Shown: positions 18,613 to 21,054 of the stretch, one piece after another
Layout of the letters: every line of letters starts with the position of its first letter
Numbering within the stretch: the stretch's first letter is position 1
NCBI GenBank assembly: GCA_011192155.1
Contig: DUEK01000012.1
Span: forward strand, 541-64,540
Length of the DNA stretch: 64,000 nucleotides
Direction: 5' to 3'
From: Thermoflexia bacterium
GTDB taxonomy: Bacteria > Chloroflexota > Anaerolineae > B4-G1
Made by a program: the position numbers and the translations under genes
Notes under the pieces: model-generated
Seen by the model: only the letters and a program-made list of their open reading frames with translations
Told to the model about the DNA's origin: nothing
The model's database searches: none

Positions 18613-20139
18613 TCACTTGGTAGGTGACTGCCAGACTTTGATTCTTGCAGCGGCCTGCCCGCGCGGGACGGTCTCCTGCTGCTTTAGTTGCAGGTTGCGG
18701 ATCGCCGCCTGCCCAGCGATCACCTCGTCTGGGCCGAGGATCACTACGTATGGGATGCCTTTCTTTAGCGCGTAGCGAATTTGCTTACCTAGGGGATCGT
18801 TCTCAAAGTACAACTCGACGTTCAGCCCCGCCTGACGCAACTCGCGCGCCATCTTGAGCGATTCGGTCACCAGGTCTGGGTTAAACTGCGTGACCAATAT
18901 CTGGGCCACCGTCTTGCCAACGGCTGGCGGGAACATTTCCAATTCTTTCATCACGTCAATGATGCGCTCGATGCCGATGGTGGTGCCGGTGGCCGGATAG
19001 CTGTGCTTGGCGAACATGCCGATCAACTCATCGTACCGCCCTCCACCCGTGATGCTGCCGATGTTGGGTTCCTCCACGATCGTCTCATAGATCGGCCCGG
19101 TATAGTACGCTAGCCCGCGCACCATCGAAGGCACGACTGGGTAATACTCCTCCGGGATGCCCAGTGCTTTCAGGTAGCGCGTCATCTCTTCCAACTCGGT
19201 GACGCCGGCGAGCGCTTCAGGATAGTTGGCCAGCCATTTGCGCAGTTGGGCCAGAATTTCGTCGTTGCTGCCGCCGATCTGTAGAAATTCGAGCAGGCGT
19301 TTGATCACCGCGTCGGGTATCGTCGCTATGCTTTCCAGTTCCAGGGCCGCTAACTGGCTCACGAGCATGGCGATTGCCTCATTCTCCAAGTCGGCCTGGC
19401 GCAGCCGGGTCTCAATAGCGGTCAGATCGGCTTCCCGGAGAGCTTGTATCAAATCGGTGATGACCTTCTTTGTCGCTTGGGCTTTTCTCAGGGCAGAGAT
19501 CGCGTCTTCCAGCCCCGTCTTGCGCAGTTCGGCCTTGACTCCTTCCAGCCCGATCTTGTCCAGCTTGTCAATGGAGCGATACAGCCCGCCCAGCAACTCG
19601 TCCGGCACGCCAGCCAACTGCCCGATGCCGGCGATGATCTTGCGATTGTTGATGTTGATCACAAACTTTTCGAATCCCAGCCGGGTCAGAATTTCGTAGA
19701 TGACGTTGACGATCTCGGCATCGGCCAACATGCTGTCCGAGCCTACGGTATCGGCATCGCATTGGTAGAACTCGCGGTAACGTCCCTTCTGCGGCCGCTC
19801 GGCCCGCCAGACCGGCGCGATCTGATACCGTTTGAGCGGCTTGGTCAGTTCTGGATACTGGGCCGCCACGCGGCACAAGGGCACCGAGAGATCGTAGCGC
19901 AACGCGAGATTCTCCTTGCCGCCGCTGTGGCCGACGTCATAGATCAATCGCTCAGCGTCACTCCCGTACTTGCCCTTGAGCGTCTCTTCCAGTTCGACGG
20001 CCGGGGTTTGCAGCGGCTCAAAGCCAAATTTCTCAAAAACATCTCGGATGACATCCACGACGTACTGGCGCAGGATCATCTGCTGTGGCAGAATATCGCG
20101 CATGCCTCTCGGCAATCTCGGATCCACTTTTTTCGTCAT
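18613..20139 (-). CDS. hisS: Histidine--tRNA ligase
   Basis: PRGMRD, LRYDLSVP, WRAERPQKGRYREFYQCD, VRGLAYYTG, GGGRYD, IGIERI; GAGG RBS before ATG 20139. Confidence 0.96.
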   Translation of the reverse strand: MTKKVDPRLPRGMRDILPQQMILRQYVVDVIRDVFEKFGFEPLQTPAVELEETLKGKYGSDAERLIYDVGHSGGKENLALRYDLSVPLCRVAAQYPELTKPLKRYQIAPVWRAERPQKGRYREFYQCDADTVGSDSMLADAEIVNVIYEILTRLGFEKFVININNRKIIAGIGQLAGVPDELLGGLYRSIDKLDKIGLEGVKAELRKTGLEDAISALRKAQATKKVITDLIQALREADLTAIETRLRQADLENEAIAMLVSQLAALELESIATIPDAVIKRLLEFLQIGGSNDEILAQLRKWLANYPEALAGVTELEEMTRYLKALGIPEEYYPVVPSMVRGLAYYTGPIYETIVEEPNIGSITGGGRYDELIGMFAKHSYPATGTTIGIERIIDVMKELEMFPPAVGKTVAQILVTQFNPDLVTESLKMARELRQAGLNVELYFENDPLGKQIRYALKKGIPYVVILGPDEVIAGQAAIRNLQLKQQETVPRGQAAARIKVWQSPTK

Positions 20140-20202
20140 ATCTTTATACCTCTCAGGAACACCTTTCGTTCCTTTCTCCGTTTGTTGTGGTATTTTTAAA
20201 GC

Positions 20203-20236
20203 AAAAAAGCGTGGACGAATCAATCGTCTCACGCTT
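20203..20236 (-). terminator. Intrinsic terminator (attenuator) upstream of hisS
   Basis: Minus strand AAGCGTG(A)GACGA-TTGAT-TCGTCCACGCTT followed by a U-run. Confidence 0.8.
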
Positions 20237-20268
20237 GAGGAAACTTGTCGTTACGAGAAAGCCCCGAT

Positions 20269-20361
20269 CTATCCAAGCCCCCTTCGAGCGTGGTTGGTAT
20301 GGTGATGATGGTGATGCGCATACAGGCCGCGCCGCGCATTGTCGCGGTGGGGGACGGTCAT
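20269..20361 (-). CDS. His-rich leader peptide MTVPHRDNARRGLYAHHHHHHTNHARRGLG (alternative in-frame ATG at 20394)
   Basis: Six consecutive His codons, located between tRNA-His and hisS and upstream of the terminator. Confidence 0.8.
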   Translation of the reverse strand: MTVPHRDNARRGLYAHHHHHHTNHARRGLG

Positions 20362-20425
20362 TGAAATGAATGAAGGAAAGCTCTTGTAGGACATTGTTTG
20401 ACTCGTGTTGTTACTGTATCACAAT

Positions 20426-20502
20426 TGGGGTGGATGACGGGACTTGAACCCGCAACCTCTGGTTCCACAGGCCAGCGCTCTAACCATTGAGCTACATCCA
20501 CC
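20426..20502 (-). tRNA. tRNA-His(GUG)
   Basis: G-1, acceptor GTGGATG/CATCCAC, discriminator C, encoded CCA, anticodon GTG, GGTTCAAGTCC T-arm. Confidence 0.95.
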
Positions 20503-20520
20503 ACGAGATAACTGGCGTAT

Positions 20521-20549
20521 AGTATGCCACACAATCGGTGAAATGTCAA
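20521..20549 (-). promoter_or_regulatory. Sigma70-type promoter for tRNA-His
   Basis: TTGACA-17 bp-CATACT with an extended TG. Confidence 0.7.
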
Positions 20550-20650
20550 ACTGCACAGGGCGCTGGGCGCGCCATGGCGCGCTCAGGAGTGAAAAGTTGG
20601 GGGAATGAGTTTCAATTGCCAGTGGTTGGCCGTTGTGCTATAATCTTGTC

Positions 20651-20856
20651 GTAACTGCTCAGGCATAACCGGGAACACAGAGATGCGCAAAGGATACACA
20701 GGGTTTCACGGAGAAGAGAGGAGAAAGTTTGCTTGTTGTACCAATTTTCAGCACAGAATACAGTGTTCGCCTGCCTCTGGGCGGACGCCCGCCTCTGGGC
20801 GGACGCCCGCCTCTGGGCAGACGTAAGCACATATCTTCCTATCTCTCTGTGATTCT
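20651..20856. mobile_element. MITE family A, copy 3, truncated
   Basis: Left end GTAACTGCTCAGGCATAACC and body match copy 2; right end absent. Confidence 0.8.
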
Positions 20857-21054
20857 CCTGATTCCGACGTTTTCTGTGGTTGAGCATCCTGAGTAACGCG
20901 AACAGCGTGAGCGCGTATCGAAGCCGAGTCCTGAGCCTGTCGAAGGGGGTGCGATTTTACAACGTTTTACGGTATTCTTCGCACCCTTCGATACGGCCTT
21001 CGGCCTACTCAGGATGCTCCGCAGACTTGAACCACAGAATCCGTCAGAACTAGG
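20857..21054. mobile_element. MITE-like element carrying a CTGAGCCTGTCGAAGG / CCTTCGATACGG REP-type core
   Basis: Imperfect ~27-bp inverted ends CCTGATTCCGACGTTTTCTGTGGTT / AACCACAGAATCCGTCAGAACTAGG; inner IR GAGCATCCTGAGTA/TACTCAGGATGCTC. Confidence 0.6.

Follow-up and report, generated by a model that had tools for sequence, protein, structure and literature searches.

The window analysed here, a stretch of 64,000 nucleotides (nt) of contig DUEK01000012.1 (assembly GCA_011192155.1) from a Thermoflexia bacterium (Chloroflexota, Anaerolineae), carries on its minus strand the histidyl-tRNA synthetase (HisRS) gene hisS, preceded by a short histidine-rich open reading frame (ORF) and a hairpin that together probably form a ribosome-mediated transcription attenuator. 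All features of this locus lie on the minus strand and their positions, which refer to the window, are given in the direction of transcription. The hisS gene (20139-18613) encodes a histidine--tRNA ligase of 508 amino acids (aa), recognised by TIGR00442 (383.7 bits versus a cut-off of 286.75) and by the Pfam families tRNA-synt_His and HGTP_anticodon, and it possesses a Shine-Dalgarno sequence. The enzyme is a long form: a segment of approximately 60-100 residues, inserted at roughly residues 215-300, is missing from the short forms of the same clade (L013, L040 and L043).

Judging from the sequence, the transcript presumably begins at a promoter-like -35/-10 pair (20549-20521; 10 of 12 matches, 17-nt spacer, extended -10 TG), which is conserved upstream of tRNA-His in three orthologous loci (L010, L011 and L013). 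Downstream of it lies a tRNA-His gene with anticodon GUG and encoded CCA (20501-20426; ARAGORN, Rfam tRNA 69.8 bits), a neighbour that the first-pass annotation of this DNA had not mentioned. The leader ORF starts 31 nt after the tRNA 3' end and spans 41 codons plus the stop (20394-20269), exactly where a minus-strand His6 ORF upstream of hisS had been reported; eight of its 41 residues are histidines, six of which (codons 27-32, 20316-20299) form an uninterrupted run, the proposed site of ribosome stalling. A seventh His codon (20292-20290), two codons past the run, opens region 2 (20293-20278), the 5' strand of the putative antiterminator, which was delimited by duplex prediction and folding, falls within the last eight sense codons and ends 7 nt before the stop codon. 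It is followed by a spacer hairpin (20283-20238) that forms in both predicted conformations, by region 3 (20243-20230), the antiterminator 3' strand, which includes the outer 7 nt of the terminator 5' arm (20236-20230), and by the intrinsic terminator (20236-20203) detected by folding and by a terminator scan, with its hairpin at 20236-20207 and a run of six T at 20208-20203. The hisS ATG is located at 20139, 63 nt past the T-run, in good agreement with the spacing of about 65 nt noted for the hairpin and U-run in the first pass. In the assembly (3,406,238 bases, 178 contigs, 83% complete) this is the only tRNA-His among 42 tRNAs, and a family search of the same genome recovered no second hisS copy; thus, the only copies found of the enzyme gene and of its substrate gene are neighbours.

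The histidine run stands out from its genomic background. Over both strands of the assembly, runs of histidine codons (CAY) amount to 605 of three triplets, 42 of four, three of five and a single one of six, the leader's own, where 0.005 runs of at least six triplets would be expected from base composition. We looked at whether another long run could mark a second leader and rejected that candidate, as one of the three five-triplet runs (contig C97) lies antisense within a 560-codon oxidoreductase-like ORF. Within its best 14 residues the window leader has 7 His, and short ORFs with at least five His in 14 residues occur in 0.55% of 3985 random 426-nt windows of the same genome. No Pfam family matched the leader ORF; the plus-strand ORFs that overlie it (111 and 94 aa) were likewise searched, with no Pfam family for either, and were set aside.

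The RNA between the His codons and hisS can adopt two competing folds. The terminator hairpin has 12 pairs and one bulge (-17.0 kcal/mol); the T-run overlaps the end of its stem, and the terminator scan catches the stem's inner part. When each conformation was forced on 20296-20200, the terminator form reached -33.3 and the antiterminator form -34.0 kcal/mol, so that the alternatives envisaged in the first pass are mutually exclusive and nearly isoenergetic. In the terminator conformation the spacer hairpin stands alongside the terminator, while in the read-through conformation the pairing of regions 2 and 3 lengthens the base of the spacer hairpin and uses up the outer seven bases of the terminator 5' arm. 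This pairing, foreseen as a 12-mer after the His run annealing to an 11-mer that overlaps the terminator 5' arm, is the minimum-free-energy fold of a transcript cut before the terminator 3' arm, and it recurs in the minimum-free-energy fold of the whole leader and in the RNAalifold consensus. A scan of 19800-20900 against Rfam (cmscan, E up to 10) matched only the tRNA, with no hit to RF00514, RF00230 or any other family. The possibility that the terminator stem is a generic repeat of this genome was discarded: the clean hairpin occurs only at the window locus, and the seven other matches to its regular expression look like chance.

Protein searches in which the leader sequence was not used yielded 20 orthologous hisS loci, and the upstream regions of all 20 were read. 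The window-type HisRS is rare: it was found in 6 of 145 genomes of the same order (four genera, one family) and in 15 of 401 genomes of a class-wide sample (E up to 1e-100), while the remaining genomes of the first sample encode the ordinary enzyme, about 430 aa long and 30-38% identical. Both types coexist in G003, one of the six genomes of the order with the window type; this co-occurrence and the rarity of the window type (6 of 145) suggest a gene replacement through transfer. The nearest named records are from Anaerolineae, and Poribacteria also contain relatives. At 11 of the 20 loci hisS is preceded by a short His-rich ORF and then by a hairpin with a T-run (the window, L010, L011, L012, L190, L192, L193, L199, L200, L203 and L204; L193, with 3 His, is a weak member), and the same alternative pairing as in the window is present in all eleven. 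A similar leader, with a His-rich ORF and then a terminator, was found in a further named genome (L042). ORFs with at least five His in 14 residues occur in 9 of the 22 upstream regions found by protein, versus 0 of 21 upstream of the ordinary hisS of relatives and 0 of 75 upstream of more distant hisS genes (96 control regions; five further loci were skipped for having too little upstream sequence). Hence, the conservation of His-rich leaders upstream of hisS in relatives, on which the first-pass annotation had made its proposal depend, holds with the same architecture across several Anaerolineae families. At L190 the spacer that separates the T-run from hisS measures about 180 nt instead of about 65; the surplus of about 120 bases makes up a long inverted repeat and looks like a small palindromic insertion.

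Metagenome contigs were scanned with a pattern made of the region 2 start, the region 3 core and the terminator end, which contains one His codon and no hisS information. The scan matched 71 loci, 13 of which have an orthologous hisS (55-85% identical) starting at most 400 nt downstream. The 14 codons that lead up to the motif include at least three additional His codons in 12 of these 13 hisS-linked loci versus none of the 58 others; 40 of the latter are copies of a repeated coding sequence that is unrelated and whose spacing is fixed at 103-108 nt, and the rest are scattered singletons. Three of the recovered leaders (L138, L154 and L157) are identical to those of genome loci (L012, L011 and L010, respectively) and the L148/L169 pair differs from L190 by one residue, while six are new and distinct (L132, L139/L165, L135/L172, L147, L162 and L173). 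A tRNA-His gene lies directly upstream in eight of the 13 hisS-linked matches, which represent five distinct leaders. In L135 and L172 a second hisS-like frame, about 27% identical to the query, directly follows the leader-controlled hisS and may be hisZ or an ordinary HisRS.

Altogether, 18 distinct leaders were compared, 12 from the protein searches (four of which had defined the pattern) and six from the pattern alone. ORFs of similar size and with the same frame relation to the hairpins are present in the 17 other loci, with clusters of 3-7 His per 14 residues; all 18 leaders keep the reading frame and the place of the stop codon, and they draw on both His codons. When the transcripts are truncated, 17 of 18 fold with the terminator 5' arm annealed to the 3' part of the ORF, and in 16 of 18 leaders the resulting duplex surpasses 95% of dinucleotide shuffles in stability. 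Only L200 fails the fold test; its complement, eight bases without a mismatch, is situated further upstream than the stretch that was folded. In a MAFFT alignment of the 18 leaders (A2; antiterminator 5' strand in columns 7-19), 86.2% of the antiterminator cells are paired, versus 33-52% when the partner is slid by 1-3 columns, and 95.5% of the terminator cells, versus 29-63%, percentages that are inflated for reasons given below. Changes on both sides were registered in 6 of 13 antiterminator pairs and in 4 of 10 terminator pairs, and in either helix the covariation score was reached by 0 of 500 shuffles, counts that, like the slide controls, are not to be read as probabilities. The most telling covariation concerns four to six bases immediately 5' of the terminator stem, which do nothing for the terminator itself and yet vary in concert, in several combinations, with the 3' part of region 2. 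In 15 of the 18 leaders, 4-15 nt separate the end of region 2 from the stop codon, a placement that suits the masking of region 2 by a terminating ribosome. By eye, several loci that lack a tRNA gene (L135, L147, L192 and L193) have a -10-like hexamer just 7-9 nt ahead of the leader ATG, and the leader may there be translated from a leaderless or nearly leaderless mRNA.

An ORF that stays open in 18 loci, with a His cluster conserved near its C-terminus, could also code for a small peptide, rich in His and with an independent function (e.g. metal binding), that sits beside hisS by happenstance. We hold this to be very improbable. Little is shared outside the His cluster and the region 2 part, even at loci with 56-85% identity between their HisRS proteins; the peptides vary in how many His they contain (3 to 8) and in how these are spaced, there is no Pfam match, and in every His-rich match to the pattern (13 of 13) the ORF is coupled to the terminator and to hisS.

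We consider it probable, from comparative sequence evidence, that the element is a leader-peptide transcription attenuator that sets the level of hisS mRNA in response to the charging of tRNA-His. Transcription would start at the promoter upstream of tRNA-His and proceed through the tRNA into the 41-codon leader ORF, tRNA and hisS presumably being co-transcribed. With plentiful charged His-tRNA(His), the ribosome would pass the six His codons and reach the stop codon, where it would shield the 5' side of the spacer hairpin and the greater part of region 2; region 3 would then be free to pair with the terminator 3' arm, and RNA polymerase would stop at the T-run (20208-20203). If charged tRNA-His ran low, whether from a lack of histidine or of HisRS, the ribosome would stall with its A site on one of the first four His codons (27-30), leaving region 2, which starts at least 13 nt downstream of the A-site codon, free to pair with region 3; no terminator would form and transcription would run on into hisS. 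As HisRS charges the very tRNA that is sensed, the loop would be self-correcting. The ribosome footprint sizes used in this geometry are general background values rather than measured ones.

Several observations weigh against this reading. Where the terminating ribosome is concerned, region 2 lies at least 21 nt before the stop codon in L042, L193 and L200, so that it would not be masked there. The energetics of the window taken alone are modest: the folding energy of the whole leader is unremarkable relative to shuffles (z -0.80 and -1.28), and the duplex of regions 2 and 3 is borderline (p 0.05). The comparative figures carry a circularity, in that the pattern imposed the core pairs on 6 of the 18 leaders and its four source loci were also aligned. 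Since the tested structure was derived from the same sequences, the paired percentage is inflated, and with imposed pairs, a self-derived structure and related sequences the results of the shuffle and slide controls are not probabilities. In the trp and his paradigms of attenuation a helix between regions 1 and 2 serves as anti-antiterminator or pause hairpin. Here the 1:2 helix is strong only in L011 (z -5.2), with z -2.2 in the window and -2.3 to +1.4 elsewhere; without a consistent 1:2 helix the naked RNA would, unlike in these paradigms, default to read-through, which may result in a high basal level of expression.

Further points on the same side concern the ORF itself. No recognisable Shine-Dalgarno sequence precedes the leader ATG in the window, and the leader ORF is absent from 9 of the 20 orthologous loci (L013, L194, L195, L196, L197, L198, L201, L202 and L205). 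Five of these have hisS right behind another gene, L194 has a tRNA-Glu upstream, and L195 and L196 have a promoter-like site with the conserved hairpin and T-run within about 15 nt. At L013 a tRNA-His is followed by a different terminator and then by hisS, and in one of the named genomes (L039) two tRNA-His genes are followed by the homologous hairpin. The last two loci in particular, and the missing Shine-Dalgarno sequence, are what one would expect if the hairpin and T-run were a mere terminator of the tRNA-His gene, with an untranslated or accidental ORF and with hisS expressed from its own promoter or by constitutive leak-through. This explanation strikes us as improbable, as it would leave the only His6 codon run of the genome (0.005 expected) to chance. 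His-rich ORFs are present in 18 loci, seven of which (L012, L135, L147, L192, L193, L203 and L204) have no upstream tRNA gene and carry their own promoter-like site directly before the ORF. Nor would a tRNA terminator account for an antiterminator that covaries, including at bases outside the terminator stem, and we found no promoter-like site between the T-run and the hisS ATG from which hisS could be transcribed.

The loci that keep the hairpin without the ORF (L039, L195 and L196) indicate that the hairpin can exist alone, and this, together with the invariant hairpin core, counts against the attenuator as a complete account and leaves room for an extra role such as protein binding. In its strong form, this idea makes the conserved hairpin or leader RNA the operator of a termination-controlling factor (uncharged tRNA-His, or HisRS itself in the manner of thrS, where autoregulation works by operator mimicry), with the ORF being secondary. 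The stem core, invariant in 18 of 18 leaders and kept in the three ORF-less loci, exceeds the needs of a plain terminator, and in 16 of 18 leaders the inner part of the stem resembles the first base pairs of the tRNA-His acceptor stem (a comparison by eye, not a statistical one). In the window, however, this likeness is broken by the bulge, no known RNA family matches the region, and the three-way pairing constraint among regions 2, 3 and 4 already accounts for a frozen core; since the enrichment of His codons and the placement of the stop codon would also be left unexplained, we deem such an operator unlikely, about as much so as the tRNA terminator. A bold addition to the attenuator, also unlikely in our view, would be that HisRS binds the invariant stem, which in most loci looks like the beginning of the tRNA-His acceptor stem, and so exerts a second feedback on top of attenuation.

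Returning to the leader-peptide attenuator, its position behind the tRNA gene invites a broader and more tentative proposal, for which we would stop somewhat short of an even chance. The only tRNA-His gene, the sensor of its charging and the only HisRS gene may be placed under one promoter as a single-transcript homeostat, in which 3' processing of the tRNA would create the 5' end of the leader mRNA and the module would match the enzyme to its substrate tRNA and not only to the histidine supply. If this were so, each burst of tRNA-His synthesis would then test the charging of the pool, and HisRS would be made only if the pool were uncharged.

The distribution of the element was viewed on a quick maximum-likelihood tree of 45 HisRS sequences (including pattern-derived rows), for which support values are from the Shimodaira-Hasegawa-like approximate likelihood ratio test (SH-aLRT) only. 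All leader-bearing hisS fall in one clade of 31 rows (support 86; enclosing branch 96), which also includes leaderless members: Poribacteria, the group with hisS behind another gene, L013, L039, L194, L195 and L196. The simplest reading would be a single origin of the leader followed by several losses, on a tree whose root and direction of change are not established. We also considered that the leader had taken the place of a T-box and dropped the idea: none of 20 loci with the ordinary hisS of relatives carries a T-box at the gathering score, and there is no sign of a switch within the order.

Among the known systems closest in logic is hisL of the enterobacterial his operon, in which tandem His codons in a short ORF (16 codons) precede alternative antiterminator and terminator structures, and stalling at the His codons favours read-through. 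The window leader (RF00514 being the hisL family) shares the tandem His codons and the alternative hairpins that follow them, and differs from hisL in its length of 41 codons, in controlling a synthetase gene instead of a biosynthetic operon, in having no consistent 1:2 helix among leaders of its type, and in the tRNA-His gene that lies upstream, apparently on the same transcript; it occurs in Chloroflexota and, with no RF00514 match in the scan described above, is not homologous. The second model is pheM-pheST of Escherichia coli, where a leader peptide rich in the cognate amino acid governs transcription attenuation of a synthetase gene. Here too such a leader would regulate a synthetase gene and the sensed quantity would be the product of the regulated enzyme, with the differences that pheM uses another amino acid, has an unrelated sequence, is proteobacterial and belongs to a unit without a tRNA gene. 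The kinship in logic with both attenuators, which the first-pass annotation had drawn, is supported at the sequence level by exclusive folds, conserved His ORFs and compensatory changes in both helices. Attenuators are reportedly also the subject of work by Vitreschak and colleagues (2004) and by Seliverstov and colleagues (2005).

T-box leaders (RF00230), which include those of Firmicutes hisS, resemble the element in yielding more synthetase when the cognate tRNA is uncharged, through a choice between terminator and antiterminator, and are distinct from it in that they bind the uncharged tRNA directly, without an ORF. That the charging of tRNA-His would be sensed at hisS by other means than a T-box had been proposed from the start, and indeed the RF00230 model finds none at this locus, while it finds six places elsewhere in the same genome (L207-L212; two above the Rfam cut-off). 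These lie upstream of thrS, pheS, trpS, valS, ilvE and one unidentified 100-codon ORF, and all six end in a hairpin and U-run, so this organism makes use of such attenuation elsewhere. As T-boxes serve four other synthetase genes of the genome, two kinds of tRNA-charging sensors would coexist in it, assigned gene by gene.

In the literature, the hisL mechanism is summarised in a passage of PMC9413887, which also presents later predictions of His-leader attenuators of his operons in three Firmicutes lineages. The nearest precedent is given in part of a 2010 paper by Naville and Gautheret (PMC2965389), where His leader peptides were predicted in bacilli upstream of a hisS paralogue and of hisZ, and where leader peptides are described as then known only in Proteobacteria and Actinobacteria. 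As far as that part of the paper describes it, the bacillar case agrees with ours in that, in a T-box-using lineage, a gene of the hisS family is predicted to be preceded by a short ORF with a stretch of His codons and by a premature terminator; it concerns a paralogue and hisZ while the main hisS keeps its T-box, whereas in the window the only hisS found is involved, in another phylum, and the likeness is one of layout. A survey of leader genes (PMC4833913) mentions Chloroflexi, in the text concerned, only as having too few genomes to judge. Our full-text literature search turned up no account of a hisS attenuator or His leader from Chloroflexi or Anaerolineae, the supplements of PMC2965389 and PMC9413887, which could hold a related prediction, being outside its reach. 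The first-pass statement that no characterised case was known in this lineage thus stands for Chloroflexota as far as that search goes, with the earlier bacillar prediction in the cited part of PMC2965389 as a qualification.

Several features of the surroundings are recorded for completeness. A tandem repeat (window positions 20768-20823; 18-nt unit, 3.1 copies, 94% matches) lies about 220 nt upstream of the promoter-like site of tRNA-His. Directly downstream of hisS, the minus strand encodes a 536-residue protein (18413-16803), of which two parts weakly match OB-fold nucleic-acid-binding families and a short part close to the N-terminus resembles a zinc ribbon, with no family at cut-off. DNA contigs from four public sequencing runs were compared with positions 20100-20600, and those that span the leader contain it with 0-1 differences. 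The contigs of three studies (X2, X3 and X4) end or diverge at 20196-20202, just past the T-run, with a loose-end sequence shared by two runs; the cause is either strain variation or a broken assembly at that point, which has no bearing on transcription.

Read from its sequence, the mechanism would be a canonical one of independent origin in a new lineage. Leader-peptide attenuation is known mainly from Proteobacteria and Actinobacteria and was later predicted in Firmicutes (according to the relevant passages of PMC2965389 and PMC9413887), and the hisS leader would add a conserved and covarying example from Chloroflexota (Anaerolineae) that controls an essential aminoacyl-tRNA synthetase. The arrangement of a tRNA gene, a leader and the cognate synthetase gene on what would be one transcript is one that we have not seen described, and it would offer a compact model for the balancing of a tRNA with its synthetase. 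For annotation, it would give a feature to look for in an intergenic region that is otherwise left blank in many uncultured Anaerolineae.

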